The position numbers and the translations under genes are program-made. Below the pieces are notes generated by a model. It had not been told where the DNA came from. It made no database searches and saw nothing but the letters and a program-made list of their open reading frames with translations. 17,633 nt of DNA from a virus. Of the stretch, positions 48-17,633 are shown in pieces (the first letter of the stretch is position 1; each line of letters begins with the position of its first letter). The stretch lies in the UHGV virus genome UHGV-0171041; one strand, given 5' to 3'.

Positions 48-49
48 TT

Positions 50-2743: not shown

Positions 2744-2747
2744 GGTT

Positions 2748-3727: not shown

Positions 3728-3738
3728 AACGGGAAGGA

Positions 3739-3762
3739 TGCCGCCGGGTCATACCGGCGGCA
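3739..3762. other. GC-rich stem-loop in the S-V intergenic spacer (9-bp stem, 6-nt loop, no U-tract)
   Basis: tGCCGCCGG gtcata CCGGCGGCa is a perfect inverted repeat seen directly. No T-run on either strand, so not a canonical intrinsic terminator. Confidence 0.5.
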
Positions 3763-3793
3763 ATGTGACGATGAGGTGTCAGGAATGGCACAA

Positions 3794-4246
3794 CTAACGG
3801 TCGAGGTGAGCCAGGATAATCTCTTCAATCATCTGCACATCCTCACTGGTAAAGCCGAGCAGAGGACGCGCCGGATAATCAATTTTCTTACCGTCTTTCC
3901 GGTTTTCTTCCGACAGACCGAACTGATGCACGCTGGCGATTTTCGGTGACTTCCCGCCGTAAAACTCCATTGATGCCTGTTCCGGGCTGGCGCGGATATG
4001 CAAAAAACGACTGGTGATAAGTTTCGCAAACATTTTTCGCTTAACGCGACCGGTCTTTTTTCTGGCGCTCTGCTGCTGGCGTGGTGCGTAGGGTGTGCCG
4101 TCCGGGGCTTTCTGTGCCATCACCCGGCGCTGCTGACTCTGCCGCAGACGTTTCGCCAGTTCGGCGCTCAGTCGCCGACGCCCTGACGGTGACAGCGATT
4201 CAATAAGTCCGGCCAGCCGGTCTTCAAAACGCTTAAACTCATTCAT
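3794..4246 (-). CDS. S: Tail completion protein gpS
   Basis: 150 aa, matches P2 gpS in length, sequence and position. Confidence 0.9.
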   Translation of the reverse strand: MNEFKRFEDRLAGLIESLSPSGRRRLSAELAKRLRQSQQRRVMAQKAPDGTPYAPRQQQSARKKTGRVKRKMFAKLITSRFLHIRASPEQASMEFYGGKSPKIASVHQFGLSEENRKDGKKIDYPARPLLGFTSEDVQMIEEIILAHLDR

Positions 4247-4706
4247 CCCACTTGCTCACCAGTTCGCCATTGATATAAAGCTCCACCGGGCGGGTGACCG
4301 GCTCCGGCGGCGGAGGTTCCGGGATATTCTTCACATGCAGTGCGCCGTCCACCTCACTGACCAGCGTGCGCTCGGTCAGCATCAGGCTGATGCTGATATC
4401 AAAGCTGCTGTCATTGTTGATGTCCGCATAAAACGTGAAGCCCTTTTTCTGGCCTTCGTCGGTGGTCATGATGTCGGGCTGATTTTCCCGCAGCCACGCC
4501 AGCACCGGCACGATGAGCAGGTCAAAATCACCGGTAAAGTCGGTCACAATCACATTGAGCGTGTAACGCTTTTCGAATGACAGCGACGTCGCCAGTGTGG
4601 AGGCAATACTCCCGTTATCCACGAATATCCGCAGCATCTCTGGACTGGTTTTCAGCACCGTGACGGCATCAGTCAGCGCCCTGCGCAGGCTGTCGGGTTT
4701 GAGCAT
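4239..4706 (-). CDS. R: Tail completion protein gpR
   Basis: 155 aa, matches P2 gpR. Start overlaps the S stop region. Confidence 0.9.
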   Translation of the reverse strand: MLKPDSLRRALTDAVTVLKTSPEMLRIFVDNGSIASTLATSLSFEKRYTLNVIVTDFTGDFDLLIVPVLAWLRENQPDIMTTDEGQKKGFTFYADINNDSSFDISISLMLTERTLVSEVDGALHVKNIPEPPPPEPVTRPVELYINGELVSKWDE

Positions 4707-4959
4707 CGTTTTCGTCCTGACAGTGTTTAATCATTTTTACCTGGCTGGCACAGCGTGCCAGCGCGTTCTCAAGCTGTCGGATATCGGCACTTAAATCGCC
4801 GTTCGTCTCCGGGTCACTGCCCGGCATCGGGCAAAGGCTCACTTTCGGGCAGGCGTTGGCGACAATCACTGGCGTCGGTGCAGGCCGGGCGCTGGTGCAA
4901 CCGGCGCACAGCATCAGGCAGGCCAGCGCCGTACCAGCGGCGAAAATCTTCGTTTTCAT
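4669..4959 (-). CDS. lysC: Rz1-like outer-membrane lipoprotein spanin LysC, overlapping lysB and R in another frame
   Basis: 96 aa with an N-terminal signal peptide and lipobox-like LCAGC, proline-rich mature part. Embedded and overlapping arrangement is as described for P2 lysC. Confidence 0.7.
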   Translation of the reverse strand: MKTKIFAAGTALACLMLCAGCTSARPAPTPVIVANACPKVSLCPMPGSDPETNGDLSADIRQLENALARCASQVKMIKHCQDENDAQTRQPAQGAD

Positions 4960-5239
4960 TCAGTAACCTCGTGATGGTTTTCTCGCGCTGTGCTTCACGC
5001 TTCGCCGCGTTCTCCAGTTCCTGACGCAGTGCCACCTGCGCCAGCTCGTTTTTGTCTGCTCTGGCGAGGGCAACATGAAGCTGATTTTTCAGCATGGTGA
5101 TGGTCGTCTGCTGCCCGTTGGCGACGTTGTTCGCCCTGTCCAGCGAGGTGCGCAGGCTGGCGTTTTCATGCTTCGCCAGAAACAGACCGGCCACCGCCAG
5201 TGATAACAACACAACCAGCACAATCATCAGCTTTGACAT
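4814..5239 (-). CDS. lysB: Rz-like inner-membrane spanin LysB
   Basis: 141 aa with an N-terminal transmembrane segment (MSKLMIVLVVLLSLAVAGLFLA) and a coiled-coil-like charged periplasmic part. Matches P2 LysB. Confidence 0.85.
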   Translation of the reverse strand: MSKLMIVLVVLLSLAVAGLFLAKHENASLRTSLDRANNVANGQQTTITMLKNQLHVALARADKNELAQVALRQELENAAKREAQREKTITRLLNENEDFRRWYGAGLPDAVRRLHQRPACTDASDCRQRLPESEPLPDAGQ

Positions 5240-5652
5240 GGTTCCCGCCCCTCAAAACGCTGACGACAGGCCGTGCGTATCAACCGGAAGAACACCGACG
5301 CCACGAGGTAAATCAGCGCGGTAAAAATCCACCCGGCAGCGATCAGCGAGATAAACGTCGCCACCATCACCACCAGAGCCGCCGCCCGTCTGCGCCACGG
5401 CACCGGCTGCAAAAACAGCGACGCGACAATCTTCACGGCCAGCGATTCCGGCGGCAGCTCCCGCCCGTAGCGTTCCAGCACATACTCAGTGGCATACACG
5501 CCGACACCACCGGCAACCACACAGATAACCGTCGCCAGAATCGCCCAGGCGGCGACAAAATTGACGGCCACGCTCTGCGGGTAAATCAGGGACAGTGCCA
5601 GCATCAGCGCCAGCGACACGTTCAGCATCAGTGAAAGGGATAATTTCTTCAT
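5227..5652 (-). CDS. lysA: Lysis timing membrane protein LysA
   Basis: 141 aa, strongly hydrophobic with multiple predicted transmembrane segments. Matches P2 LysA in size and position. Confidence 0.85.
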   Translation of the reverse strand: MKKLSLSLMLNVSLALMLALSLIYPQSVAVNFVAAWAILATVICVVAGGVGVYATEYVLERYGRELPPESLAVKIVASLFLQPVPWRRRAAALVVMVATFISLIAAGWIFTALIYLVASVFFRLIRTACRQRFEGREPCQS

Positions 5653-5666
5653 GGTGTTTACTCCGT

Positions 5667-6164
5667 TTAAGCCGGTACGCCGCCAGCGGTACGCCAGACG
5701 GTGACCAGTTTTTCCAGTGAATGCTCACGCTGACCGTAACCGGCACCCGGCAGGGACGCCCAGATATTGCGACAGCGTGAAATGGCGCGCTCAATGCGTC
5801 CCGCCCGGATGTCATCCAGTGCACCGCGTTCGCGGATCAACTGAATGGCAAGTCTGTCCTGTGACAACGGACTGAAATCCGGCAGGGCAAGCTGTTTGCG
5901 GTAGTGCGGCCAGAACAGGTAAAGCTGCTGATAGCGACCGGAGGCCGTGGACTTTTCACCGCGACGGTTAAACACCTTCGCCGGTCGGCCATGCGCGAAC
6001 GGGTGGTCACTGTAGTCGGTGAAAATTTCCGGCTTCCCGTCCAGTCCGGTGACTATCACGTCATAGCCCCGGTTTTTCGTCAGCGGATGGTTCGCCGTCC
6101 CTTCGGACACCGCCAGCATGTCGAGAAAGGCCGCGATATTCTGATGCGTGTTAATTACCGGCAT
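5667..6164 (-). CDS. K: Endolysin gpK
   Basis: 165 aa beginning MPVINTHQNIAAFLDMLAVSEGT, recognised as the P2 gpK endolysin. Confidence 0.9.
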   Translation of the reverse strand: MPVINTHQNIAAFLDMLAVSEGTANHPLTKNRGYDVIVTGLDGKPEIFTDYSDHPFAHGRPAKVFNRRGEKSTASGRYQQLYLFWPHYRKQLALPDFSPLSQDRLAIQLIRERGALDDIRAGRIERAISRCRNIWASLPGAGYGQREHSLEKLVTVWRTAGGVPA

Positions 6165-6445
6165 TACTGTTTCCCCCTGCCCTTAAAACGGCGCTGAATG
6201 GCAATCTCAATCACCTGATAACCGGCGATACCCAGCATGGAGCCGATGCCGCACACTGCAGGCAGTGACAGGTCAGGAAACTGCACCAGAACAACACCGG
6301 CAACCATCGAGACAAAACCACCGAGCAACATGCGCCCGATAAACAGACGCGGGGTGATGGGTTCACCACCGGCAAGCACCTTGCCGACAACAATCAGCAC
6401 CCCAATCATGAAAAGCGACAGGACGCTTTTTTCTTCTGCTGTCAT
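6164..6445 (-). CDS. Y: Holin gpY
   Basis: 93 aa with hydrophobic transmembrane segments and a charged C-terminus (RRFKGRGKQ). Sits immediately upstream of K as in P2. Confidence 0.9.
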   Translation of the reverse strand: MTAEEKSVLSLFMIGVLIVVGKVLAGGEPITPRLFIGRMLLGGFVSMVAGVVLVQFPDLSLPAVCGIGSMLGIAGYQVIEIAIQRRFKGRGKQ

Positions 6446-6448
6446 GCG

Positions 6449-6652
6449 TTACTCCCACAGATTGACAGTTTCAGCCACGGGCGCGGTCTGAACGTCGGGC
6501 AGTTCGACGGCGGTGCCGTGCGGCAGCACCGCACCCAGTTCAGCCAGTCCCGGATTTGCGGCGAGCACGGTCTCAACCACGCCCTCAGTGCGCCCGTAAT
6601 ACCGGACACAAATGGCGTCGAGCGTGTCGCCCTGTAGCGCAAAGGTCTTCAT
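6449..6652 (-). CDS. X: Tail protein gpX (LysM-like), 67 aa
   Basis: The six-frame ORF is 90 aa, but the internal ATG at 6652..6650 gives the 67-aa product MKTFALQGDTLDAICVRYYGR matching P2 gpX. That start shares a base with the L stop (TGATG). Confidence 0.85.
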   Translation of the reverse strand: MKTFALQGDTLDAICVRYYGRTEGVVETVLAANPGLAELGAVLPHGTAVELPDVQTAPVAETVNLWE

Positions 6653-7161
6653 CAGATTTGACTCACGATGCAGCGCGGCTTGCCCTGGATGCGCGCCACT
6701 GCCCAGCGCATATCCCGCCACAGCTCATCAATGGTGCTGTCAATGCTGTCGGCCTTCTTGTCGCCTTTCGCACTGGCATCCACGCCGCGATAACGTTCAT
6801 AAAGCGACGCGGTCGCCATCGCACACACGGCGCGCTCGTAGTAAAAAACTTTGATGCTTTCACCGTCGATGTCGTCCGCCGGGACGTCCGCCAGACGCGT
6901 AAAACCGGCGGCAATTTTCTGTTCGCGGTACTCGTACAGCTCCGCATTCGTCTCCGCCATGCCTGACTTGATGGCCTCACGCAGACGGGCGGGGGCGACG
7001 GTCTGCTCAAGGCGCATACGTTCCCGGACGCGCTTCGGGTCGATATCGGGAAAAAAGAACGTGTTTTTAATCACCGGCTCGTCGCCTGCCGGTTGCGGGA
7101 TGACCACCGTACCCTCACCGGACACGGGGGCCTCCTTTCGCGGAATAATCAGCGTCATCAT
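6652..7161 (-). CDS. L: Head completion protein gpL, 169 aa
   Basis: Start placed at the internal MMTLIIPRKEAP (ATG at 7161..7159), preceded by GAGG 6 nt upstream. This gives the P2 gpL length; the longer 189-aa frame lacks a ribosome-binding site. Confidence 0.88.
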   Translation of the reverse strand: MMTLIIPRKEAPVSGEGTVVIPQPAGDEPVIKNTFFFPDIDPKRVRERMRLEQTVAPARLREAIKSGMAETNAELYEYREQKIAAGFTRLADVPADDIDGESIKVFYYERAVCAMATASLYERYRGVDASAKGDKKADSIDSTIDELWRDMRWAVARIQGKPRCIVSQI

Positions 7162-7260
7162 GACTACCTCTGAAAAGTCGGGCGGTGGACGCCGGTGCAG
7201 TGTCAGGTGATTCACCCTCACTGACCGGCGTGCCGCCCTGGCGCGGGGCGCATTCGGTTG

Positions 7261-8004
7261 TTAACTGGCTTTCTTTTTCGGGCGTCCACGTTTTGCCGGT
7301 GTCACGCTCCGGATCTTACGCGGGGCGCGGGTGGCCGCTTTGGGCTGCGGCTCCGGCTTCGGTTTCAGCTCCCGCTCCAGTCGTTCAATCTCTTTTTTGA
7401 CGCCTGCCTGACAGTCGAGCTGTGTCGCACGTTGCAGGTGCGCCAGCGCACCGGCGGCATCACCACCATCACGCAGAAACAGACCGGTGATTTTGTGCAG
7501 CTTTGCGCGCACTTCATCAGGCATGTCAGCCGTGGCGGTCAGTTCAAGGGTCTCCGTCAGCAGGCGGGTATCCACAGACTCACCGGCAGCGTGAGCACGC
7601 ATGGCCGCGAGCGCCACCTCCTCGGTGAACATGTACGGCGGGGTGCGGCGGTGTTTACCCGGCATGGTCAGACCGTACTTCAGGGCATAACGGGCAATCT
7701 CCAGCGCACCGGCAATATCGCCGGTATCCAGACGCCACAGCATGACCGTCATCAGAATGTCATCCTGTGCACCTTTGCCCTGCTCCAGCACGCCGTTCAC
7801 CCACGGCAACCAGAACGGCAGCAGTTCGCGTTTTTTCGCGGCCTTCAGCTCTTTTGAATAAATCGCTTTCAGTGTGCGCTGGTCTGCGGCGAGCTTAACC
7901 AGCATCTGCTCATAGACAGTTGCATGTCGCAGCGGGGCGGCTTCCCGCTGCGCGGTCATCGCTGCCGAGACCCGCATCATGTGGCGCTGTGCGGGACTCG
8001 TCAT
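7261..8004 (-). CDS. M: Terminase small subunit gpM
   Basis: 247 aa, same length as P2 gpM. Lies between N and L with a roughly 99-bp M-L spacer as in P2. Confidence 0.9.
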   Translation of the reverse strand: MTSPAQRHMMRVSAAMTAQREAAPLRHATVYEQMLVKLAADQRTLKAIYSKELKAAKKRELLPFWLPWVNGVLEQGKGAQDDILMTVMLWRLDTGDIAGALEIARYALKYGLTMPGKHRRTPPYMFTEEVALAAMRAHAAGESVDTRLLTETLELTATADMPDEVRAKLHKITGLFLRDGGDAAGALAHLQRATQLDCQAGVKKEIERLERELKPKPEPQPKAATRAPRKIRSVTPAKRGRPKKKAS

Positions 8005-8007
8005 CGG

Positions 8008-9081
8008 TTACGCTCCCGGCTCTGCGGTCGCCTTAGCCGGTGTGGAGAAATCACCGACCTTAATTTTTTCCACCAGACAACCGGCGGCGTAGTCTTCCAC
8101 CACGTAATCAATGTTCATTGACTCGTAGTTCTCCACGCGGTCGAGTTTCGGGTTTTCCTCAATCACGCGGCGATGGCTGTCATCCATGTAGTAGATGGAC
8201 AGGTTTTCCAGCTTCGTGATGAGCATCGCATCCGCCGGGAAGTACGGGACGCGTACCGCTGGCAGGTTACCGATGCGTTTCTGGCTGATGATGACGTCAG
8301 CGGCCAGCATTTCGCTGTTGTCCTGCTCCTTGTTGACGATGGGGAAATATTTGTCCGCCAGCAGCTGACGCCCCACAATCACCACAAGGTCAGGGTCTTC
8401 CTGATACCACGGCTCAATCAGGTTGTTGGTCGCATCCATCACCAGTGCATCGAGGCTGGCATAATCACCGCCCTTACCCACGCGGATGACCTCAGAGGTG
8501 GTGTGCCCTTCCTCGTCAGTGACCTTGCTCATCACGCGCGCCGGTGCTTCATTGCGGTATTTCTGCAGCCAGCCGACCGCCACATCCTGCAGCATCGGAT
8601 TGCTGCTGCGGTCAGAGGTTTCGGCACGCTTCACGCCGTTAAAACCGGCCATGATTAAATCAAGGGACTGGCGTTTGATAATGGCGTTACGGATACGGAG
8701 CTGGAAATCCTGATAACGCGCCCACAGGTCCAGCGTTTTGTAGCGGATATAAAAATCGAAGTTAATCTGGTCGCATTCGTACTTACTGGACGCCAGCTTC
8801 GAGAAGTCCTTCGGCTGACGCTCGGTGCCACCGGCGGTGTCGGTGGTGCTGGCGATGGAGCCGGTGACACCGATGCCAATTTTTTCCCCTTTCATTTCGC
8901 TGACCGGCACAATGTTGATGCGGGTCAGAAAGTCAGAGGACTCCTGCATGGTGTTCATCAGGGTCTGGGTGACCGACGGTTCAACGGTGAATTTTTTCGA
9001 CACATCACCGGCGTCGATGCCGTTCAGTTCGGCAACACGGGACAGGTAGGCATTAAATTTAAAGCGGGTTTCCTGGCGCAT
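8008..9081 (-). CDS. N: Major capsid protein gpN
   Basis: 357 aa, same length as P2 gpN, beginning MRQETRFKFNAYLSRVAELNGIDAGDVSKKF. Confidence 0.92.
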   Translation of the reverse strand: MRQETRFKFNAYLSRVAELNGIDAGDVSKKFTVEPSVTQTLMNTMQESSDFLTRINIVPVSEMKGEKIGIGVTGSIASTTDTAGGTERQPKDFSKLASSKYECDQINFDFYIRYKTLDLWARYQDFQLRIRNAIIKRQSLDLIMAGFNGVKRAETSDRSSNPMLQDVAVGWLQKYRNEAPARVMSKVTDEEGHTTSEVIRVGKGGDYASLDALVMDATNNLIEPWYQEDPDLVVIVGRQLLADKYFPIVNKEQDNSEMLAADVIISQKRIGNLPAVRVPYFPADAMLITKLENLSIYYMDDSHRRVIEENPKLDRVENYESMNIDYVVEDYAAGCLVEKIKVGDFSTPAKATAEPGA

Positions 9082-9139
9082 AGTTTTTCCTGAAATTAAG
9101 GGTTAATCGTGAAGGTTTTCCCGGACTGACTGACGCCGG

Positions 9140-9994
9140 TCAGCAGTTCGTCATCAGGGCGTCACCGCCACCGCCGGTGGCTTTGCTGCGGCGCTGCTGG
9201 GTCAGACTTTCGGTGTGGTCGAGACTGTTTTTCAGGCGGGTGAATGCCTGACTGGTTTCATCCGCCCTGTCAGTCACATCCTGCTTAAGTGCGGAAAAGG
9301 CGGTTTCCATCTCAGCAAGGCGCTGCTCAGTGGCGCTCAGTTTTTCCTGCACATGCTCAGCGACAGCGGTCACCGCTTCATGCACGTCATTCAGACGGGC
9401 GTCATCGCTGGCCTGTTTGCGGCCAAAAATGGATTTCACCTTTTCGGTCAGGGCGGTGAACACGGTTTCAGGCAGGTCTTCAAATTCCAGCTCAACAGGC
9501 GTTGCCACTGAAATCAGGTTTTCAGGGCTTAATTTGAAGCGGTTCAGGGGGTTGTGTTTTGCCGTGCGGCAGAATTCCAGGTATTCCGTGCCGAGGCTTG
9601 CCGGGTCATCGGTGACGGCCAGACCCACCAGATAACATTTGCCTGTATTGGCAAAGTTCGGCTGAATTTCCATTGAGGTATAGACCTTCTGCGCGGCCTT
9701 GTTCATCGCGATAAGGTCATCGGTCGGGGTGATTTTCGCAAACAGCGCCCATTTGCCTTTCAGCGCCGAATCATCGTCAATCTTTTCGGCCTTCAGTTCG
9801 GCCACATCGCCATAACGTTTAAAAATACCGTCAGGCAGGATGCCGCGCAGATGTTCCAGGTTAATGCGGCAACCATAGACACGCGGGTCAAAGGTTTCGG
9901 CCATTTCCTGAATATCCTGCGCACTGATGACACGCCCGTCACAGGTGTCACCCTCAACGCCGATACGAAAGAATTTTGAGACTTTTTTTGCCAT
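9140..9994 (-). CDS. O: Capsid scaffold protein gpO, 284 aa
   Basis: Start placed at the internal MAKKVSKFFRIGVEGD (ATG at 9994..9992), which matches the P2 gpO N-terminus and length. The 22 upstream codons of the longest ORF are judged not translated. Confidence 0.9.
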   Translation of the reverse strand: MAKKVSKFFRIGVEGDTCDGRVISAQDIQEMAETFDPRVYGCRINLEHLRGILPDGIFKRYGDVAELKAEKIDDDSALKGKWALFAKITPTDDLIAMNKAAQKVYTSMEIQPNFANTGKCYLVGLAVTDDPASLGTEYLEFCRTAKHNPLNRFKLSPENLISVATPVELEFEDLPETVFTALTEKVKSIFGRKQASDDARLNDVHEAVTAVAEHVQEKLSATEQRLAEMETAFSALKQDVTDRADETSQAFTRLKNSLDHTESLTQQRRSKATGGGGDALMTNC

Positions 9995-10167
9995 TGTCAG
10001 GAGTCCTGAATAGTGATTAGAGGAGTCACATGTCGGCATCAGTTTCCCGACGATGCGCATCCTCCGCCATCAGTCCCGGATGGCTTATCACTGACACAAC
10101 AGCACCTTAGCGAATCGCGGGGCGCGACTCAGTAGCCTTGCCGTGTATTCATCACGGCGAGGTATTC
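9995..10167. promoter_or_regulatory. Divergent intergenic region between O and P, expected site of the late promoters
   Basis: 173-bp non-coding spacer between divergently transcribed O and P. In P2 this spacer holds the Ogr-activated PO and PP promoters. Individual promoter elements could not be assigned by eye. Confidence 0.5.
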
Positions 10168-11940
10168 ATGACCATCACCACAGACACCACTCTTTTACAC
10201 GACCCGCGTCGTCAGGCGGCGCTGCTGTACTGGCAGGGATTTTCCGTGCCGCAGATTGCCGCCATGTTGCAGATGAAACGCCCGACGGTGCAGAGCTGGA
10301 AACAGCGCGACGGCTGGGACAGCGTTGCCCCCATCAGCCGTGTCGAAATGAGTCTGGAAGCGCGGCTGACCCAGCTCATCATAAAACCGCAGAAAACCGG
10401 CGGTGACTTCAAGGAAATTGACCTGCTCGGACGCCAGATTGAACGACTGGCGCGGGTCAACCGTTACAGTCAGACCGGCAACGAGGCAGACCTTAATCCG
10501 AACGTCGCTAACCGCAACAAAGGCGGGCGCCGCAAACCGAAAAAGAATTTTTTCAGTGACGAGGCCATCGAAAAGCTGGAGCAGATTTTCTTTGAGCAGT
10601 CTTTCGACTATCAGTTGCACTGGTATCGCGCCGGGCTTGAGCACCGCATCCGCGATATCCTGAAATCCCGCCAGATTGGCGCGACGTTTTATTTTTCCCG
10701 CGAGGCGCTGCTGCGCGCCCTGAAAACCGGTCATAACCAGATTTTTCTGTCGGCCAGTAAAACGCAGGCGTATGTGTTCCGCGAATACATCATCGCCTTT
10801 GCCCGGCTGGTTGACGTTGACCTGACCGGTGACCCGATTGTCCTGGGCAATAACGGCGCAAAACTGATTTTTCTCGGCACCAACTCCAACACCGCGCAGA
10901 GCCATAACGGCGACCTGTACGTCGACGAGATTTTCTGGATCCCGAATTTTCAGGTACTGCGTAAGGTGGCATCAGGTATGGCCTCACAGAGTCACCTGCG
11001 TTCGACCTATTTCTCCACCCCGTCCACGCTGGCGCACGACGCCTACCCGTTCTGGTCGGGTGAACTGTTCAACCGGGGACGCGCCAGCGCCGCCGAACGC
11101 GTGGAAATCGACGTCAGTCATAACGCCCTTGCCGGTGGGCTTCTCTGTGCAGACGGCCAGTGGCGGCAGATTGTCACCATTGAGGACGCGTTGAAAGGCG
11201 GCTGCACGCTGTTCGACATTGAGCAGCTCAAACGTGAAAACAGCGCCGACGATTTTAAAAACCTGTTCATGTGTGAATTTGTTGACGACAAGGCGTCGGT
11301 GTTCCCGTTCGAGGAGCTGCAACGCTGCATGGTCGACACGCTGGAAGAATGGGAAGACTATGCGCCGTTTGCCGCGAATCCGTTCGGCTCCCGCCCGGTA
11401 TGGATTGGTTACGACCCGTCACACCGTGGCGACAGCGCCGGATGCGTGGTACTGGCACCGCCGGTGGTGGCCGGTGGCAAATTCAGAATACTTGAGCGTC
11501 ACCAGTGGAAAGGCATGGACTTTGCCACTCAGGCGGAATCCATCCGCAAACTCACCGAAAAATACAACGTCGAATACATCGGTATTGATGCCACCGGCCT
11601 CGGTGTCGGCGTGTTCCAGCTCGTGCGCTCGTTCTATCCCGCCGCGCGCGATATCCGCTACACACCGGAAATGAAAACCGCAATGGTGCTCAAGGCAAAA
11701 GACGTCATCCGCCGTGGCTGTCTGGAATATGACGTCAGCGCCACCGACATCACCAGCTCGTTTATGGCTATCCGCAAGACCATGACCAGCAGCGGACGCA
11801 GCGCCACGTATGAGGCCAGCCGCAGCGAGGAAGCCAGCCACGCCGACCTCGCCTGGGCGACCATGCACGCCCTGTTAAATGAGCCACTCACCGCCGGTAT
11901 CAGCACCCCGCTGACATCCACCATTCTGGAGTTTTACTGA
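10168..11940 (+). CDS. P: Terminase large (ATPase) subunit gpP, 590 aa
   Basis: Start at the ATG at 10168 (MTITTDTTLLHDPRRQAALLYWQGFSVPQIAAMLQ), preceded by GAGG. Matches P2 gpP in N-terminus and length. Stop overlaps the Q start (ATGA). Confidence 0.92.
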   Translation: MTITTDTTLLHDPRRQAALLYWQGFSVPQIAAMLQMKRPTVQSWKQRDGWDSVAPISRVEMSLEARLTQLIIKPQKTGGDFKEIDLLGRQIERLARVNRYSQTGNEADLNPNVANRNKGGRRKPKKNFFSDEAIEKLEQIFFEQSFDYQLHWYRAGLEHRIRDILKSRQIGATFYFSREALLRALKTGHNQIFLSASKTQAYVFREYIIAFARLVDVDLTGDPIVLGNNGAKLIFLGTNSNTAQSHNGDLYVDEIFWIPNFQVLRKVASGMASQSHLRSTYFSTPSTLAHDAYPFWSGELFNRGRASAAERVEIDVSHNALAGGLLCADGQWRQIVTIEDALKGGCTLFDIEQLKRENSADDFKNLFMCEFVDDKASVFPFEELQRCMVDTLEEWEDYAPFAANPFGSRPVWIGYDPSHRGDSAGCVVLAPPVVAGGKFRILERHQWKGMDFATQAESIRKLTEKYNVEYIGIDATGLGVGVFQLVRSFYPAARDIRYTPEMKTAMVLKAKDVIRRGCLEYDVSATDITSSFMAIRKTMTSSGRSATYEASRSEEASHADLAWATMHALLNEPLTAGISTPLTSTILEFY

Positions 11941-12974
11941 TGAGCAAGAAAAAAGGGAAAACACCGCAACCTGCGGCAAAAAAAATGACCGCCAGCGCCC
12001 CGAAAATGGAGGCATTCACCTTTGGTGAGCCGGTGCCGGTACTCGACCGCCGTGACATTCTGGATTACGTCGAGTGCATCAGTAACGGCAGATGGTATGA
12101 GCCACCGGTCAGCTTTACCGGTCTGGCAAAAAGCCTGCGTGCTGCCGTGCATCACAGCTCACCGATTTACGTCAAACGCAATATTCTGGCCTCGACATTT
12201 ATCCCGCATCCGTGGCTTTCCCAGCAGGATTTCAGCCGCTTTGTGCTGGATTTTCTGGTGTTCGGTAATGCGTTTCTGGAAAAGCGTTACAGCACCACCG
12301 GTAAGGTCATCAGACTGGAAACCTCACCGGCAAAATATACCCGCCGTGGCGTGGAAGAGGATGTTTACTGGTGGGTGCCGTCCTTCCATGAGCCGACACC
12401 TTTCGCGCCCGGCTCCGTGTTTCACCTGCTGGAGCCGGATATTAATCAGGAGCTGTACGGTCTGCCGGAATATCTCAGCGCCCTTAACTCTGCCTGGCTG
12501 AATGAATCAGCCACGCTGTTCCGCCGCAAGTATTACGAAAACGGCGCTCATGCCGGATACATCATGTACGTCACTGATGCCGTGCAGGATCGCAACGATA
12601 TCGAAATGCTCCGCGAAAACATGGTTAAGTCAAAAGGCCGCAACAACTTTAAAAACCTGTTTCTCTATGCCCCACAGGGAAAAGCCGACGGCATTAAAAT
12701 TATCCCGCTCAGTGAAGTGGCGACGAAGGACGATTTTTTTAATATCAAAAAAGCCAGCGCCGCTGACCTGCTGGACGCGCACCGCATCCCCTTTCAGTTG
12801 ATGGGCGGCAAGCCGGAGAACGTCGGGTCGCTGGGTGATATTGAGAAAGTGGCAAAGGTCTTTGTCCGCAATGAACTTATCCCGTTACAGGACAGGATCC
12901 GCGAGATAAACGGCTGGCTCGGTCAGGAGGTCATCCGCTTTAAAAACTACTCACTGGACACTGACAACGGCTGA
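11940..12974 (+). CDS. Q: Portal protein gpQ
   Basis: 344 aa beginning MSKKKGKTPQPAAKKMTASAPKMEAFTFGEPVPVLDRRDILDY, recognised as P2 gpQ. Confidence 0.92.
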   Translation: MSKKKGKTPQPAAKKMTASAPKMEAFTFGEPVPVLDRRDILDYVECISNGRWYEPPVSFTGLAKSLRAAVHHSSPIYVKRNILASTFIPHPWLSQQDFSRFVLDFLVFGNAFLEKRYSTTGKVIRLETSPAKYTRRGVEEDVYWWVPSFHEPTPFAPGSVFHLLEPDINQELYGLPEYLSALNSAWLNESATLFRRKYYENGAHAGYIMYVTDAVQDRNDIEMLRENMVKSKGRNNFKNLFLYAPQGKADGIKIIPLSEVATKDDFFNIKKASAADLLDAHRIPFQLMGGKPENVGSLGDIEKVAKVFVRNELIPLQDRIREINGWLGQEVIRFKNYSLDTDNG

Positions 12975-12979
12975 ACATC

Positions 12980-13001
12980 GCCGCCTGCGGGCGGCTTTTT
13001 T
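12980..13001 (+). terminator. Rho-independent terminator downstream of Q
   Basis: GCCGCC tgcg GGCGGC hairpin followed directly by TTTTTT, beginning 6 nt after the Q stop codon. Confidence 0.8.
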
Positions 13002-13141
13002 ACACCCCGCCATCACGCCCTCACACGCTCACCACCGCACAAAACAGCCCGCAGACACACAACGCCCGGCGCACACTCTAAACGCCATCACGACGCGCTC
13101 AGACGCTGAAAAAATAAAATCAGCACCACCGCCAGCGCGCA

Positions 13142-13160
13142 GTGCTTTCCCCGCCTCGCC
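13142..13160 (-). other. cos: cos cohesive-end site (19 nt)
   Basis: gtgctttccccgcctcgcc is the exact reverse complement of the P2 cohesive end GGCGAGGCGGGGAAAGCAC as recalled. It lies about 170 bp beyond the Q stop, where P2 places cos. Confidence 0.8.
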
Positions 13161-13211
13161 CGCCCGCTTCGTGGGGCAGTTTTAATGCATATGAATGTAA
13201 ATTTAGAAACC

Positions 13212-13239
13212 ATACCAAGCCTAGATATAGGCTTGGTAT
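13212..13239. terminator. Perfect 11-bp-stem hairpin between cos and the 99-aa ORF, possible terminator for that ORF
   Basis: ATACCAAGCCT agatat AGGCTTGGTAT seen directly. On the minus strand it is followed by a U-rich stretch (GGUUUCUAAAUUU), about 50 nt after the ORF stop. Confidence 0.45.
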
Positions 13240-13288
13240 TTATTCAGGAATTGTGAATGCAAAATAATGCAAGAATATGCATTATTTA

Positions 13289-13588
13289 CTACTTAGCCTT
13301 GATAACTGGATGAGCCCGGTCATGGCCCCCTCCCAAGAACTTTGAAAAAATCACCTTATCATTACTCACTGGTTTACTACCATACACACTATCGTAATGA
13401 AAAAATACTTGTGGTTGGTTTGGTATACGAATGAAACCATAAGCTAGGTTTTCCTTCCGTACCAACCCAATATCAGTAGCTATAGCCACTGGTAAGGTTG
13501 AGACACGACGCACTGAGGATGCTATATTTTTTCGATGTAGCCATCCGTGAATATGCTCATGAAGGATTTCGTAAGAATCACGGCTCAC
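13289..13588 (-). CDS. Hypothetical 99-aa protein in the AT-rich cargo island between cos and gene A; HEHIH motif near the N-terminus
   Basis: Open frame of 99 codons from GTG at 13588..13586, preceded by a perfect AGGAGG at 13598..13593 (4-nt spacer). No in-frame ATG. About 38% GC. Sits where P2 carries orf91-tin-old. I do not recognise the sequence. Confidence 0.55.
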   Translation of the reverse strand: MSRDSYEILHEHIHGWLHRKNIASSVRRVSTLPVAIATDIGLVRKENLAYGFIRIPNQPQVFFHYDSVYGSKPVSNDKVIFSKFLGGGHDRAHPVIKAK

Positions 13589-13631
13589 ATTACCTCCTAG
13601 TTACTTTGATAGACCAAAGAGTTAGCTTACA

Positions 13632-13661
13632 AAAATAGAGCGGGAATGCCTAGTGTTTCAA
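13632..13661 (-). promoter_or_regulatory. Candidate sigma-70 promoter for the 99-aa ORF
   Basis: On the minus strand, TTGAAA (13661..13656), an 18-nt spacer, then TATTTT (13637..13632), about 45 nt upstream of the GTG start. Assigned by eye only. Confidence 0.3.
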
Positions 13662-13718
13662 TCGATTTTTGTGAGAATTGGTTATTTAATAACTATATAA
13701 AAACATTGGAATTTACCA

Positions 13719-16001
13719 CTAATTCCAGTTAGCAAAAAGCCCCCATTCCTCTTGCGAGCGCTCATTAAAACTATAATATTTTCCTTCGTAAAAGAGTGTA
13801 GCTCCGCGAGCTAGAGCAAGAAGCAGCCACCTTTCCACCGCAACCCCCTGCTGAGCGAGGTCTACGCGGATACGGGTAATTTGCATTCGTTCTGACCGGG
13901 TCAGTCTGGCCGATGGTGCAATTTCATGCGGTTTTAACGGGCTTCCATTTCTTTGCTGACGGTTTGGCGTTCTCAGGTCGTATTTTAATGCGCCCCTGAG
14001 CGCCCTCACGACCTCCGGTTCATTCCATTCAATAACACCGTCATCAACCAGATTAAGCACTGCTGCGGCGTGCTCAGAAGGAGTGGGAGCCGGTAACGAA
14101 GTATCACCGCTGGTGAGCTTTCCACAGTTATTGACAGGACTCCGAGGCGCGGCGATGCCGCTTTTTAAAGTCAAAGGCTCAACGACCGGAACTTTCGGCA
14201 CAATGCGCCAGTCCGTGGTTCTGGTGATATGAATATGACGCGCGCCGAGATGCGGTGCGTAAATGCCGACCACTCTCTCGACTTCTTCCTCGTACTCGTT
14301 AACGTCATCCGACGGGCTACGGGCGACTCTGACAGTCTGACAATCGCGCGGAACATTTGCCCCACCCTGCGCGCTGATATACAACGCAAAATCACCACTG
14401 TCTGCAGCGGCGCGTGCAGCCTCGACGCGCTCGTCAAACTCATCAGCAATGCTGACGCCGCGCGGCAATTTGCGTAGTTCACGGTAAGCCCCCATTGTCG
14501 GCAGGCCAACCGTTTTAAATTGCGGGATGCGCCACGTTGACGCCCATGCGGTAACAGCCGCTGCAGTGTCTTTCAGCGGCCTGCCGGTGTCGTTATCGAG
14601 CTGACCATCCAGTGCATAGCCGTCGATGTTTTTTGAAATGTATTTCGCGATATATCCCGCAGCACCGCCCCGGTTAAGGTGTTTTGCCTGAAAACGGTTT
14701 CGCGCAGCTCCTCTTTCGTCTCCATCCTCTTTGAGCGCGTAGCGACGCATGATTTCGATAATCTGGTTACGCTGGCGTGGATTACAAAAAAGCATCATAT
14801 GCCAGTGCGGCGTTCCGTCGTGGTGTGGTTCAACAACACGCAAACCGTAGACCTGTAAATCATTATCCTTGAATGCCGTGCGCATCAGGCTCCAGATACG
14901 GCAGAGATAACGCTGCGCATCCTTTGGATTAAATGCCTCATCGTTCCAGCCGTGATTAAGCTGAACGGTTTTACTTTCGCCTTTTCTGACCTGACGTGTC
15001 GGGTGATACTTTGACGGCGCGGTCAGCGTGATAAACATCCCCACATCACCCTCTGCGGCGGCGTAACGCTCAATACCGGCAATGGTGTTCATCAGCTCCA
15101 TCCGGCGAATTTCAGGATTAGAAATACTGCCCATCACCTTACTGATAAGGTCGATGCGCTCGCCGGTTTCCTTGTTTTCAAGGTCACACGATTTAAGAAA
15201 TTCCAGATTTGCCTGGCGGCGCGCACGCACATCACGAATGGCATGTTTACTGGCATAAGGAGAACGGTCTTTATTGACCTCCCCGACAGCAATCAGTAAC
15301 GCCTCATGCCAGCGCATACGCTGGCCTTTAAGCTGATGAGTCCACCACTCATCGTTAAACAGGCGGGCAATGGCAGAATATGCCTGCCTCGTGGTCATCT
15401 GCCCTTTACGGTATTTTTTCCAGTAAAGCGGGGAAATATTGAAAGCACGTGCAGCGCCAGCAACATGACCATAGAGGTGAGCCTGCGCCTCATCCGTAAA
15501 CAGCGATTCTTTTTCGCCATGTGCATCAACCCAGGCATCGCAGAGTTCCTCATACATCATGAAAAGCTGCGATGAGATACGGGCAGCAAACTTTTTCAGC
15601 TCCTTGTCATTCATCCCCGGCAGGCGCGCATACTGGTCGCGCTCTGCCAGAAACAGCAACGACGCGTCGGTGTTCATTTCATGGCGCTGATTCACACGCT
15701 CAATGCGCGGCCATAAACGACGCTGAAAAGTGGATGTGAGGAAATAAAACCCGTGCACCGGGCTTTTATTGCGCCGGATGTAGTCATAGCGTGAAGTAAA
15801 CAGCGAGCGCAAAAAGTAAGGCAGGCGGTTAATCGTGGATAAAACACCTTGCACCTGACGCATCTCGTCACGTGTAAGGGGTCTTTCGCGCCCGACGGCC
15901 TCGCGTGGCGCGTTCCATGCATAAGCACCGGTAAACGTCTTACCGGTGCCTGCGGCAAATGCTGACGGAGGGACAAAATGCCCGGAGGCTTTAACGGCCA
16001 T
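13719..16001 (-). CDS. A: Rolling-circle replication initiator gpA (HUH endonuclease family)
   Basis: Start placed at MAVKASGHFVPPSAFAAGTGK (ATG at 16001..15999), matching the P2 gpA N-terminus. Contains the HUH motif PHWHMMLF and the tyrosine pair GYIAKYISK. About 760 aa, as for P2 A. The last 25 or so codons are AT-rich. Confidence 0.92.
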   Translation of the reverse strand: MAVKASGHFVPPSAFAAGTGKTFTGAYAWNAPREAVGRERPLTRDEMRQVQGVLSTINRLPYFLRSLFTSRYDYIRRNKSPVHGFYFLTSTFQRRLWPRIERVNQRHEMNTDASLLFLAERDQYARLPGMNDKELKKFAARISSQLFMMYEELCDAWVDAHGEKESLFTDEAQAHLYGHVAGAARAFNISPLYWKKYRKGQMTTRQAYSAIARLFNDEWWTHQLKGQRMRWHEALLIAVGEVNKDRSPYASKHAIRDVRARRQANLEFLKSCDLENKETGERIDLISKVMGSISNPEIRRMELMNTIAGIERYAAAEGDVGMFITLTAPSKYHPTRQVRKGESKTVQLNHGWNDEAFNPKDAQRYLCRIWSLMRTAFKDNDLQVYGLRVVEPHHDGTPHWHMMLFCNPRQRNQIIEIMRRYALKEDGDERGAARNRFQAKHLNRGGAAGYIAKYISKNIDGYALDGQLDNDTGRPLKDTAAAVTAWASTWRIPQFKTVGLPTMGAYRELRKLPRGVSIADEFDERVEAARAAADSGDFALYISAQGGANVPRDCQTVRVARSPSDDVNEYEEEVERVVGIYAPHLGARHIHITRTTDWRIVPKVPVVEPLTLKSGIAAPRSPVNNCGKLTSGDTSLPAPTPSEHAAAVLNLVDDGVIEWNEPEVVRALRGALKYDLRTPNRQQRNGSPLKPHEIAPSARLTRSERMQITRIRVDLAQQGVAVERWLLLALARGATLFYEGKYYSFNERSQEEWGLFANWN

Positions 16002-16266
16002 ATGAGCCAAAAGCCTCTGAACAACGCCTGCTGAGTTGCTCAACCTGCGCGTTTAAATCAGCAAAAGACTTTGCGCTTCCGGTCAGAATATCGTGATGCA
16101 TCAGGCCGGAAACGAGCTGGCTTAATTTCGGATAATAACCAACCACCGCCAGCCATTCCTGACCGGCGTTTTTACCGCTTTCCGCTCTCTTTTTCTCGTG
16201 GAGAATAAACTGAAAGCTGTCACTGGTAACGACATAACGTTCGCCAATTTCAATACGAATACTCAT
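15991..16266 (-). CDS. Small early-operon protein immediately upstream of A (P2 orf83-position), 91 aa
   Basis: ORF on the same strand as A, stop overlapping the A start. Position corresponds to the small ORFs between B and A in P2. Function unknown. Confidence 0.6.
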   Translation of the reverse strand: MSIRIEIGERYVVTSDSFQFILHEKKRAESGKNAGQEWLAVVGYYPKLSQLVSGLMHHDILTGSAKSFADLNAQVEQLSRRCSEAFGSYGR

Positions 16267-16487
16267 GCCGTTCTCCGGTAATGTTTGTTTTTTGCTTCAA
16301 AGACTGACTGGCAGGAAACACAACGCGTGGCTGACGGATAAGCCGCACGACGGGCAGCAGGTATTGGCGCGTCACACTCTTCGCAAACCAGCGCAGAAGC
16401 ACCGCAATGTTTTACCCTTGCCGCGTTAATCTGACGCTCCAGTAATTCAGCCTGTTGTTCCTGAATAAAATCTACGTTGTCCGGCAT
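16263..16487 (-). CDS. DksA/TraR-family C4 zinc-finger protein, 74 aa
   Basis: Two CxxC pairs (VCEECDAP ... RCVSCQSV) in a 74-aa protein of TraR-like size. Translationally coupled to its neighbours by ATGA-type overlaps. Confidence 0.7.
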   Translation of the reverse strand: MPDNVDFIQEQQAELLERQINAARVKHCGASALVCEECDAPIPAARRAAYPSATRCVSCQSVFEAKNKHYRRTA

Positions 16488-16792
16488 TACCAGCTCCTTT
16501 TGTCGTTAAGTTTTTTAAATTCATCAGCGCAATAGCTGGCAATTTCTGTCGTTAATTTCGTCAGTTCATCCACGGAGGAGATTTGCTTGTGAAATACAGC
16601 GCGTTTAACAAGTAAATTGACCACATCAGACAGGAGGTTTAATTCATTCTGATAAATCGCGATAACAGATTCAGTGATGTCGCGTTTTTCTTTATCAAGA
16701 CCAAGTTGAATAAGAGACAAATCGCCATTTTTCATAACGGCGATTTTTAAGGTGTTATTCAGTAATACAACTGAATGAGAACAGGACATCAA
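16487..16792 (-). CDS. Small early-operon protein of unknown function
   Basis: 101-aa ORF, or about 82 aa if started at the internal MKNGD methionine. Coupled by overlaps to flanking ORFs. Position as P2 orf81/orf82. Confidence 0.55.
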
Positions 16793-17013
16793 AGCACCTC
16801 CCCGCGAGACAATCCGATATTGTGAAATTTTTCCGACTCCTGACTGAGCAGCTCGACTATCTCCACGCGGGATAACTCCGCCTTTGTGATGTGGCGAATC
16901 ATGGTGTCAAGATGAGAAGAAAAGCGCGTCGCAGCGTCAGCCTGTGCTTCGGTTCTGGCCTGTTGCAGCAGTAATGCGTATTTACCGCACTGATTTTCAG
17001 AAACTGTATGCAT
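16789..17013 (-). CDS. Small early-operon protein of unknown function
   Basis: 74-aa ORF preceded by GGAGAAAG. Position as P2 orf80, directly downstream of B. Confidence 0.55.
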
Positions 17014-17076
17014 GACTTTCTCCAGGCAAAAAGAAGCCCCGCACGATTAAGTGCGTTAAAAACTCTGGTTAATTAT

Positions 17077-17583
17077 TTAATGCAGATATTGCTCTGGTTT
17101 TACCGACGTCAGAATTGTCGGTGCATACTCAAACAGACTGAATAATTCACGTAACGCACGGAATAAAGCATCACGCCAGTAACATGACTCTTCATTAATT
17201 CGCCAGTATGGCTGGTTAAATTCTTTTTCAGTCAATCCGGCATGCATAAATAAAGTACGGCGCTGACTGACTGTTAAAAAACTAATATATGCATACTCAC
17301 TTGCACCGACCTGACGGCGTTTTGAGAATGCCCCGCGCAGTTCATCAATTGCACAAACCAGCCGTTCACGTTCGACGTCGTTCATTTCTTCAAAACGCAT
17401 CGTTGCGTGACGCTGTTTTAACTGCGCATGGAAGCAAACCGTTAGCCGTTCACGTTCCATCATCTGATTATAATAATCGCATGTCTCCTGCCAGCGAGGG
17501 ACGGCCAGATGCTTACCAATTATCCGGCGCATAGCTGCTGGCTGTTTTTCAACGAGATTGAGCGTCATCACTGTCATTTCCAT
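17077..17583 (-). CDS. B: Replication protein gpB
   Basis: 168-aa ORF (MEMTVMTLNLVEKQPAAMRRIIGKHLAVPRWQ), size and position match P2 gpB (about 166 aa). True start may be the second ATG at 17577. Confidence 0.85.
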   Translation of the reverse strand: MEMTVMTLNLVEKQPAAMRRIIGKHLAVPRWQETCDYYNQMMERERLTVCFHAQLKQRHATMRFEEMNDVERERLVCAIDELRGAFSKRRQVGASEYAYISFLTVSQRRTLFMHAGLTEKEFNQPYWRINEESCYWRDALFRALRELFSLFEYAPTILTSVKPEQYLH

Positions 17584-17633
17584 ACCCTCCGGCTTTTCAG
17601 AAAGGTCAGAGCCTTTTTTAACGGACTCTGTTT

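Follow-up and report, generated by a model that had tools for sequence, protein, structure and literature searches.

A very probable inactivated KKP cassette remnant between cos and gene A of an Escherichia coli P2-like prophage

A short AT-rich island separates cos from the replication endonuclease gene A in the P2-like prophage described here. We conclude with high confidence that this island is what an inactivated KKP (kinase-kinase-phosphatase) cassette has left behind at the gpQ-cos-gpA hotspot of an E. coli prophage. Most of the operon was lost to one illegitimate deletion, 3,009 bp long and with 1 bp of microhomology. The missing DNA starts at codon 48 of the phosphatase gene and extends through codon 301 of the gene for the PfkA-like kinase; the phosphatase catalytic core is gone, as are the PfkA-like kinase domain and the PfkB-like kinase in its entirety. 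What survives is the leader with its Shine-Dalgarno sequence, the start codon, and the hairpins downstream, which now frame an in-frame chimera of 99 amino acids (aa). Here, we describe the island, the junction within it, its relationship to known systems, and the readings that compete with this explanation. All positions refer to the 17,633-nt stretch of virus genome UHGV-0171041 that was analyzed, which we call “the window”.

KKP is known from Pseudomonas Pf6 and from P2, P4, and Mu-like prophages, with components named PfpC, PfkB, and PfkA (PMC11341870). It consists of a PP2C gene followed by two kinase genes, with one kinase carrying a cold-shock domain (CSD) and a GFI/A motif, and the other an FHA domain (PMC11341870). 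Guo et al. (2024) located KKP in P2 and P4 prophages and showed that it has toxin-antitoxin and anti-phage activity (PMC11341870). In the published work on KKP, the two kinases are jointly toxic, and the phosphatase counteracts them, i.e., it is the antitoxin; when a phage-encoded protein blocks it, the kinases are freed and infection is aborted. The GFI motif is required for kinase toxicity (PMC11341870).

The island and its setting

The gpQ-cos-gpA (TO) hotspot of P2 is a reservoir of interchangeable cargo (Rousset et al. 2022, PMC9122126). Its three landmarks, i.e., gene Q, cos, and gene A, are all present in the window (Table 1), consistent with the original prediction that this is a cargo locus. 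The prophage is otherwise complete, and the host flank, ycaD-ycaM-pflA, is that of E. coli. The hotspot flanks are 96.5–97.2% identical to P2: in a blastn comparison with the P2 ends joined, window positions 11900–13189 are 96.5% identical to the P2 sequence that starts at 1261, crosses cos, and ends at 33546, and the gene A region, 13851–16100, matches P2 at 97.2% nucleotide identity. P2 nucleotide homology ends at 13189 and restarts at 13851, inside gene A. The 661 bp between these points (13190–13850) stand in place of P2 30185–33545, an interval that holds orf91, tin, and old as well as the final 45 codons of A. In a megablast comparison with 76 P2-like phages, alignments end at window positions 13160–13198, and the island DNA has no match among phage records.

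Table 1. Features of the window in and around the cos–A island.
Feature	Position	Strand	Details
Gene Q (portal), left conserved flank of the hotspot	11940..12974	+	Pfam Phage_portal; P2 Q homology
Block recently common to cassette-bearing prophages	~13101..14189		One SNP plus the deletion; mismatch maps against L001 and L002
P2-type cos, 19-nt cohesive-end sequence	13142..13160		GGCGAGGCGGGGAAAGCAC on the minus strand; identical to cosL/cosR, NC_001895
Last 29 bp with P2 homology, next to cos	13161..13189		Left boundary of the foreign segment between 13189 and 13190
Stem-loop downstream of the kinase stop codon	13212..13239	-	Perfect 12-bp stem, 4-nt loop; 100% identity to the intact L001 cassette
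Second stem-loop, directly after the ORF's TAG stop codon	13259..13289	-	In the same fold; without a clear U tract
99-aa chimeric ORF, PfpC(1-47)::PfkA(302-353)	13289..13588	-	In frame; stops at the native kinase stop codon
PfkA-like kinase gene, 3´ remnant	13289..13447	-	52 codons and the stop; WP_032316595.1 residues 302-353
Deletion junction	13447..13448		3,009 bp of the parental cassette missing (L001 4993-8001); blastn and three-way comparison
PP2C phosphatase gene (pfpC-like), 5´ remnant	13448..13588	-	GTG start and 47 codons; WP_032316594.1 residues 1-47
Cassette leader with promoter region, intact	13589..13718	-	AGGAGG Shine-Dalgarno at 13592-13597
Variant 3´ end of gene A	13719..13850	-	Last 43 codons plus stop; no P2 nucleotide match
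Gene A (replication endonuclease gpA), intact	13719..16001	-	760 aa; Pfam Phage_GPA, E = 6.6e-123

Orf91, tin, and old are absent, as predicted: there is no nucleotide match to P2 30185–33545, and positions 13161–13800 hold ORFs of 99, 41, and 46 aa only, none of them the size of Old or Tin. Two of these ORFs are treated as spurious. The 41-aa ORF (13142..13267, plus strand) runs from cos over the left boundary of the island, and the 46-aa ORF (13498..13638, plus strand) lies antisense within the 99-aa ORF; neither has a match in Pfam or PADLOC. A conserved orf91 region from which tin and old had simply been deleted is ruled out by the lack of DNA or protein similarity, with BLASTP of Orf91 against the 99-aa ORF giving E = 1.1.

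The island also stands apart in base composition. GC content in 100-bp windows is 31–46% across 13200–13799, compared with 50–63% on either side; the dip anticipated from just after cos into the end of gene A is therefore real, and it is the lowest stretch of the window. Among 343 windows of 500 bp from the 17.6-kb sequence, the one starting at 13201 has the minimum GC content (37.6%), ~4.1 standard deviations below the mean outside the island (55.3%, standard deviation 4.3). Positions 13190–13718 are 36.9% GC, equal to the intact parental cassette. GC content rises from 36% at 13700–13799 to 59% at 13800–13899, so the compositional boundary does fall within approximately the last 25 codons of A. 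The extent of the foreign segment needs correction, however: it reaches the 3´ end of A, but divergence from P2 starts at 13850, 43 codons before the stop codon, and not at ~13800.

Gene A, with its stop codon at 13719–13721, is also called in an identical contig (L005). When the C-terminus of its product is compared with P2 gpA, the tail proves to be diverged from that of P2 yet alignable. The corresponding DNA is limited to one IMG/VR contig (L008; see below) and the four complete E. coli genomes that have the intact cassette, and it is ≤66% identical in 75 P2-like phages. On this distribution, the variant 3´ end of A is taken to travel with the cassette. Mismatch maps against two cassette-bearing prophage loci used as references (L001 and L002) delimit a block of near-identity that extends well into gene A (Table 1); outside this block, the window and the cassette-bearing prophage differ by ~2.5%. 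The comparison supports placing the latest homologous-recombination crossovers at the ends of the block, with one at ~14190, in line with the earlier suggestion of recombination inside this conserved gene. A literature search for the 3´ end of gene A as a recombination point returned nothing usable.

The junction and the chimeric ORF

The intact cassette, present at the gpQ-cos-gpA hotspot in four complete E. coli genomes, is a 3.67-kb, 37% GC, minus-strand operon; in all four, its three genes sit between the portal and replication endonuclease genes. The encoded proteins are a PfpC-like PP2C phosphatase (WP_032316594.1, 398 aa) and two Ser/Thr kinases, one PfkB-like (WP_050438546.1, 354 aa) and one PfkA-like with a C-terminal cold-shock domain (WP_032316595.1, 353 aa). 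The phosphatase matches PF13672 (PP2C_2) with 27 bits against a cut-off of 24. PF00069 is matched twice, once for each kinase (E = 1e-39 and 9e-47), and both kinases have HRD and DFG motifs. The second kinase, WP_032316595.1, has GFI at residue 305.

Blastn aligns window positions 12901–13447 with L001 4436–4992, and positions 13444–14100 with L001 7998–8654 at 99.7% identity. The two parts of the island are 100% (left) and 99.8% (right, one SNP) identical to the ends of the parental cassette, and this level of identity holds for the cassette ends in L001, L002, and L008. Perfect microhomology at the junction is limited to 1 bp (G), or CTAG/CTTG when one mismatch is allowed, and the junction falls exactly between two codons. 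The original prediction, which described small cargo of “one small ORF plus regulatory DNA”, is not borne out; instead, an internal deletion of 3,009 bp has brought both ends of a 3.67-kb KKP cassette together to form the island.

The phosphatase remnant shows zero differences from L001 8002–8142. The cut lies within the R-x-x-N-Q-D motif, at N47, and the DGMGG motif (residue 72) is lost. Since the NCBIfam Stp1/PP2C profile spans residues 38–269 of the intact protein, ~10 of ~232 domain positions are left. The kinase remnant is 100% identical to L001 4834–4992 and corresponds to a cold-shock domain minus its first strand, with the GFI motif kept (AYGFIRI, ORF residues 49–55). The Pfam CSD model scores 16.3 bits on the 99-aa ORF, under its 27-bit cut-off, and PADLOC returns a marginal CSD_V match alone (E = 0.01). 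For a profile built from four PfkA-like C-termini, all PDB matches with E < 1 are cold-shock domains (best E = 2e-4). Pfam detects no PP2C or Pkinase domain in the 99-aa ORF.

The sequences on either side of the chimera are retained. The leader differs from that of L001 by a single SNP, at 13644. It contains a weak sigma-70-like match on the minus strand (TTGAAA at 13661–13656, TATTTT at 13637–13632), and a promoter scan performed no better than chance (two found versus 1.5 expected). Downstream of the chimera, the minus-strand RNA from 13190–13295 has a predicted folding energy of −31.3 kcal/mol (z = −5.6 versus shuffles); the stem-loop at 13212..13239 is probably the terminator of the KKP operon. 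An Rfam scan of the island found nothing near any gathering score.

Relationship to KKP and other systems

The parental cassette shares the gene order of KKP, i.e., PP2C, kinase, and kinase with CSD and GFI, and its position between Phage_GPA and Phage_portal genes. The KKP catalogue in the supplement of Guo et al. includes E. coli S40, E1167, and 03-6430 (PMC11341870), and two of the loci compared here come from these strains. The IMG/VR contig L008, from 03-6430, is 99.4% identical to this cassette along 4.2 kb, and its PfkA-like kinase is a 100% match; E. coli S40 (L007) carries a cassette with 65–81% aa identity in the same hotspot. No FHA domain was found in the parental PfkB-like kinase by Pfam (E up to 10) or by a PDB profile search. 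KKP itself is an already-known system, of which the island is most likely an ordinary dead copy. The PP2C protein is reduced to residues 1–47 in the window, the PfkB-type gene is wholly absent, and positions 13161–13800 contain no kinase domain and, apart from the chimera, no ORF >46 aa. Lacking the kinase domains, the phosphatase core, and the PfkB-like gene, the window very probably carries a dead derivative of KKP and not a working member. Toxin-antitoxin behavior and phage protection would be expected to be absent, because all catalytic domains are missing.

A related system was described by Rousset et al. (2022) as “Phosphatase + kinase + kinase” (pFR102, E. coli E1167; Tables S2B and S5; PMC9122126). 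It has the same hotspot and three-gene architecture as the parental cassette, and homologous proteins, with 74% identity in the C-terminal domain of the PfkA-like kinase; however, it is a diverged variant, with ~71–73% DNA identity to the parent of the window. This system is listed under additional tested systems, outside the validated set (PMC9122126), so anti-phage activity of this particular variant is putative. The TO region of P2 itself shares the position between A and cos and, like the intact parental cassette, is accessory cargo, with old and tin being anti-phage genes (PMC9122126), but it has no sequence similarity to the island. Lastly, the parental kinases match the PADLOC profiles for PD-T4-6 and mad6 over the kinase domain (mad6, E = 1e-49 to 1e-59). 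These are generic kinase-domain matches: the single-gene Ser/Thr kinase defenses PD-T4-6 and Stk2 and the MADS kinase MAD6 represent systems that lack a paired kinase, a CSD, and a PP2C antitoxin. The 99-aa ORF has no PADLOC match to PD-T4-6, Stk2, or MAD6.

Rarity of the allele, alternative readings, and significance

The deletion allele is rare. The exact 99-aa protein is encoded on 4–5 public contigs and forms an unnamed singleton cluster. None of 5,426 complete E. coli genomes has the deletion allele, while a near-identical intact cassette is present in four and a diverged variant in 14. The 39-mer spanning the junction is absent from GTDB representative genomes, IMG/VR, and JGI metagenomes, and the PfkA-like loci in IMG/VR are all full-length, with no independent remnant. 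Among 1.84 billion representative proteins, there is no second protein spanning both halves at high identity; a 104-aa protein (P0016) aligns to the 99-aa ORF over most of its length at 36%. Of the short CSD-bearing proteins inspected from this exhaustive search, most are C-terminal fragments of full-length kinases; one of the short proteins (P0014) is encoded on a 1.5-kb low-quality contig and is uninformative. A word-based protein search, which gave nine candidates and missed the full-length parents, was left out of these counts.

The numbers bear on the idea that the island was acquired as is, i.e., as small cargo made up of a short ORF and regulatory DNA that replaced orf91-tin-old. Such an origin would fit a recognized cargo hotspot, a foreign base composition, and a single ORF, yet the intact form is commoner than the short form, and each half of the ORF is identical to the end of a different full-length gene, with 3 kb between the two in intact cassettes. 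One breakpoint interrupts a PP2C catalytic motif and the other a cold-shock domain, and this domain structure rules out that full-length cassettes arose from the short form by insertion. We therefore consider acquisition of the short form, which the alignment refutes, highly improbable. Even less credence is due to the junction being an assembly or sequencing artifact that masks an intact cassette in the true prophage. Every record of the allele is a short-read assembly in ENA or Logan, and none has an NCBI accession; nevertheless, the same junction, with 10–14 kb of identical flanks, occurs in contigs named NODE_... and k141_... from different samples. That contigs of both SPAdes and MEGAHIT type, drawn from different ENA samples, carry an identical allele indicates that it is not an assembly artifact, and the breakpoints, sharing a single base pair of perfect homology, offer no repeat that could be collapsed.

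Of the readings that compete with a dead remnant, the one we rate highest, although still very unlikely, is that the chimera is a functional neo-gene, in which the conserved N-terminal helix of PfpC would carry a free cold-shock domain of the PfkA type, with a role in nucleic-acid binding, or as a decoy or dominant-negative against the KKP of co-resident or competing P2/P4 elements. For example, the chimera could occupy the site on PfkB that is contacted by the PfkA C-terminus. The fusion is in frame, with an AGGAGG ribosome-binding site, a GTG start codon, and downstream hairpins; it retains the GFI motif; and its PfpC portion, the N-terminal 47 residues, is far better conserved among cassette variants than the remaining protein. 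Against this, a chance junction would be in frame one third of the time, the cold-shock domain lacks its first strand, and the protein is a singleton on a handful of near-identical contigs. A single-sequence AlphaFold2 model of the chimera is uninformative (mean pLDDT of 44), and the near-perfect identity of the island to its parent leaves no time in which selection could have acted. We accordingly see little chance that the chimera is expressed from the retained pfpC signals as an anti-KKP decoy or as a free, nucleic-acid-binding, cold-shock-like protein. If it were, the prophage or its host could evade or weaken the KKP of rival P2 and P4 elements, and an anti-defense gene would have been born through internal deletion of a defense operon.

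We favor the simpler explanation of an inactivated KKP remnant, which, judged from its sequence, most likely does nothing. Toxin and antitoxin went in a single step, and, because they were lost together, the lysogen would be expected to tolerate the deletion. With its translation signals, almost complete cold-shock domain, and GFI motif, the chimera may be expressed and have some residual or new activity.

The importance of the island beyond correct annotation is small. An automatic pipeline would label the ORF as hypothetical, or as a small cold-shock-like protein in a defense hotspot; it is better described as a pseudogene-like scar of KKP, and the prophage should not be scored as carrying defense at the cos-A site. 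The island is a clean, datable example of a tripartite toxin-antitoxin defense operon that would have been lost in one step, toxins and antitoxin together. It also exemplifies how hotspot cargo moves among P2 backbones by homologous recombination, with probable crossovers in gene A and in the Q-cos spacer, and how a cassette can come with a distinct version of the final 43 codons of A.

An AT-rich island between cos and gene A

GC content falls to 31–46% over positions 13200–13799, versus 50–63% on both sides (100-bp windows). Among all 343 windows of 500 bp in the 17.6-kb sequence, the one beginning at 13201 is lowest in GC content (37.6%), ~4.1 standard deviations under the average for non-island windows. 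The AT-rich island of the original prediction is thereby borne out. A second, milder dip, to 42–45% (500-bp windows), spans positions 16150–17100, over small early genes upstream of A.

Nucleotide homology to phage P2 (NC_001895) runs from the portal gene, Q, through cos to position 13189 at 96.5% identity, and picks up again within A, from 13851 on, at 97.2%. The intervening 661 bp (13190–13850) stand in place of P2 30185–33545, which comprises orf91, tin, and old plus the final 45 codons of A. The prediction had described the island as a replacement for the orf91/tin/old segment, and this description is accurate. The alternative it named, a conserved orf91 region, does not fit: the 99-aa ORF is unrelated to P2 Orf91 (E = 1.1). 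Other ORFs between cos and A encode only 41 and 46 aa, and the island matches nothing among phage records, including at blastn sensitivity.

Features of the window and of the intact parental cassette
Feature	Window position	Accession	Length	Strand	Remark
Portal gene Q	11940-12974			plus	
P2 cos	13142-13160		19 nt		match to P2 cos sequence
99-aa ORF	13289..13588		99 aa	minus	sole sizeable ORF between cos and A
Replication gene A	13719-16001			minus	
DUF5405-like ORF	16487..16792			minus	within milder low-GC stretch
DUF2732-like ORF	16789..17013			minus	within milder low-GC stretch
PP2C phosphatase		WP_032316594.1	398 aa	minus	parental cassette
Ser/Thr kinase, first		WP_050438546.1	354 aa	minus	parental cassette
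Ser/Thr kinase, second		WP_032316595.1	353 aa	minus	parental cassette

Deletion within a kinase-kinase-phosphatase cassette

A megablast search of 5,426 complete Escherichia coli genomes matched the right half of the island (13447–13800) in four, at 99.4–99.7% identity. The matching DNA is annotated as the start of a “PP2C family protein-serine/threonine phosphatase” adjoining the replication endonuclease. In these genomes (e.g., L001, NZ_AP027634, strain PSJ-22, and L002, NZ_CP128592), three minus-strand genes lie between the portal gene and gene A, encoding the phosphatase and two kinases. Pfam PP2C_2 scores over its cut-off in the phosphatase, Pkinase is detected in both kinases (E = 1e-39 and 9e-47), and the NCBIfam Stp1-type PP2C profile aligns end to end with phosphatase residues 38–269. 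Both kinases have HRD and DFG motifs, and the second has GFI at residue 305. For a profile of the C-terminal 73 residues of the second kinase, every PDB match at E < 1 is a cold-shock domain (CSD), the best being UNR CSDs and CspB, from E = 2e-4.

These predicted domains give the parental cassette the architecture of the kinase-kinase-phosphatase (KKP) system of Guo et al. (2024, PMC11341870), in which the PP2C phosphatase PfpC is followed by PfkB (kinase and FHA domain) and PfkA (kinase and CSD with a GFI/A motif). Only one KKP-defining feature could not be confirmed in the parental cassette, namely the FHA domain expected in its PfkB-like kinase. The same authors reported >1,200 KKP clusters; temperate phages, P2 and P4 among them, account for over 90%. 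In their work, toxicity comes from the two kinases jointly and depends on the GFI-bearing CSD as well as on the FHA domain, with the phosphatase serving as antitoxin; its inhibition by T4 Gp59 triggers the system (PMC11341870). The link to this published catalogue is direct, via strains S40, E1167, and 03-6430, all listed in its supplementary data (PMC11341870). The S40 cassette occupies the same hotspot and encodes proteins with 65%, 68%, and 81% identity to the parental ones, while an IMG/VR contig from 03-6430 carries the L001 cassette itself (99.4% over 4.2 kb; PfkA-like kinase 100% identical). Earlier, Rousset et al. (2022, PMC9122126) recorded Pkinase, Pkinase, and PP2C among P2-hotspot arrangements and cloned the E1167 version as pFR102, “Phosphatase + kinase + kinase”, placed under “additional tested systems”, outside the validated ones.

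Direct alignment with L001 pairs window positions 12901–13447 with L001 4436–4992, and 13444–14100 with L001 7998–8654. Inside the island, only position 13644, in the right part, differs, the left part being 100% identical; L001 4993–8001, i.e., 3,009 bp, is missing from the window. The non-P2 segment is 3,670 bp in intact prophages versus 661 bp in the window, with 36.9% GC in both. Microhomology at the breakpoints is one base (G), or CTAG/CTTG with one mismatch permitted. Translation of the 99-aa ORF yields phosphatase residues 1–47 joined in frame to kinase residues 302–353, ending at the native kinase stop codon. The phosphatase is cut at N47, within its R-x-x-N-Q-D motif, and the DGMGG motif and everything downstream are gone. 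The PfkB-like kinase is wholly absent, and the PfkA-like kinase has lost residues 1–301, with the kinase domain and first CSD strand. Of the KKP genes, the window keeps only two end fragments, and the chimeric ORF is without any catalytic domain.

PfpC residues 1–47 (window 13448–13588) are ~87–96% identical across cassette variants, versus only 65% for full proteins, which suggests a conserved interaction surface in the PfpC N-terminus, ahead of the PP2C domain. A low-confidence model places a helix at residues 5–19. Several public pfpC alleles (P0004, P0006, P0007 with 12 member sequences, and P0008) are shortened at about residues 76–93 by frameshifts at or just past the DGMGG-coding stretch (equivalent to L001 ~7900–7930); in E1167, this stretch has a run of seven G (ATGGGGGGGATGGAAGGGGGAG). 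The frameshifts may reflect errors in sequencing or slippage within the antitoxin gene, which would be odd for a toxin-antitoxin system.

Joint exchange of the cassette and the end of gene A

Over its final 43 codons (13719–13850), A has no nucleotide match to P2. The encoded tail has diverged from that of P2, yet it can be aligned and keeps a Y-x-G-K-x-[FY]-[ST] ... E-W pattern. This tail (the last ~43 gpA residues) differs among P2, the window prophage, and the S40 prophage, with the pattern common to them. Among complete E. coli genomes, the tail DNA occurs only alongside the intact cassette; it is also present in the 03-6430 contig. S40, with its 71% cassette variant, has a different, more P2-like tail, and identity to the window tail does not exceed 66% in any of 75 P2-like phages. 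Across the loci compared, the A tail differs with the cargo.

The window differs from L001 and L002 by ~2.5% along Q and most of A, but is essentially identical to them between ~13101, which lies in the Q-cos spacer, and 14189, a point 157 codons inside the 3′ part of A. The cassette was therefore exchanged recently together with cos and the 3′ end of A, in a single block moved by homologous recombination in the conserved flanks; the Q-cos spacer forms the left edge of this block. The spacer has small indels relative to L001 at 13075–13100, including one extra GAGACGCT unit in L001. Recombination within the flanking gene A, as originally proposed, is supported, although the recent crossover lies ~400 bp past the compositional boundary.

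Reality, rarity, and fate of the deletion allele

Two ENA contigs, each from a separate sample, match window positions 3289–17633 at 100% identity: L005 (ERZ894232, NODE_...) and L006 (ERZ19693858, k141_...). Their naming styles point to different assemblers. An assembly artefact at the junction is unlikely, because the contigs differ in sample and naming style and the breakpoints have no repeat. In both contigs, the prophage looks complete. It adjoins pflA in an E. coli chromosome, and the ycaD-ycaM-pflA flank (L005 1–5000) is 100% identical to E. coli. The relatives L001 and L002 are integrated elsewhere, near yegQ/yegR/yegS. At L001 2993–3475, the prophage is apparently truncated on its structural side, with a partial gene beside the portal gene and then host yegQ; an intact cassette sits there in a decayed prophage, versus a decayed cassette in an apparently complete one.

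The deletion allele is real, recent, and rare. The exact 99-aa protein is found on 4–5 contigs, as an unnamed singleton cluster without an NCBI accession. GTDB representative genomes, IMG/VR, and JGI metagenomes all lack the junction 39-mer, and the deletion is absent from all 5,426 complete E. coli genomes, four of which have the near-identical intact cassette and 14 the 71%-identical variant. In an exhaustive HMMER search across 1.84 billion representatives, no second protein spanned both chimera halves at high identity; most of the short CSD-bearing matches inspected are C-terminal fragments of full-length kinases. P0016 (104 aa, from a GC-rich source) aligns to chimera residues 8–97 at 36% identity and has a clear PfkA-type CSD, preceded by an N-terminus that is not of kinase type; this protein may be a further remnant or the product of a frameshifted gene call.

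The original prediction had read the island as small cargo, one small ORF plus regulatory DNA. Acquisition in that form is refuted, because each half of the ORF comes from a different gene, 3 kb from the other, and the breakpoints interrupt domains; the island is the two ends of the 3,670-bp segment. It is conceivable, though very improbable, that the chimera is a functional neo-gene whose free CSD acts as an anti-KKP decoy. The junction is in frame, a one-in-three chance, and expression signals are retained: the cassette leader, with an AGGAGG Shine-Dalgarno sequence (13592–13597) and GTG start, and two stem-loops 3′ of the stop codon, of which the one at 13212–13239 has a perfect 12-bp stem (fold z = −5.6). 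The chimera may therefore still be made. However, an allele this rare and this nearly identical to its parent speaks against selection. The single-sequence AlphaFold2 model computed for the chimera is uninformative (mean pLDDT of 44).

The locus is therefore best read as a dead KKP cassette, whose 99-aa ORF is most likely inert. A single event removed both toxins along with their antitoxin, so that, going by published toxin-antitoxin behavior, the lysogen would be spared kinase toxicity. The system and the hotspot are known, inactivation was by ordinary deletion, and nothing here is surprising or new in kind. The value of the finding lies in annotation, and in a tidy example of defense-cassette decay and flank-mediated exchange.
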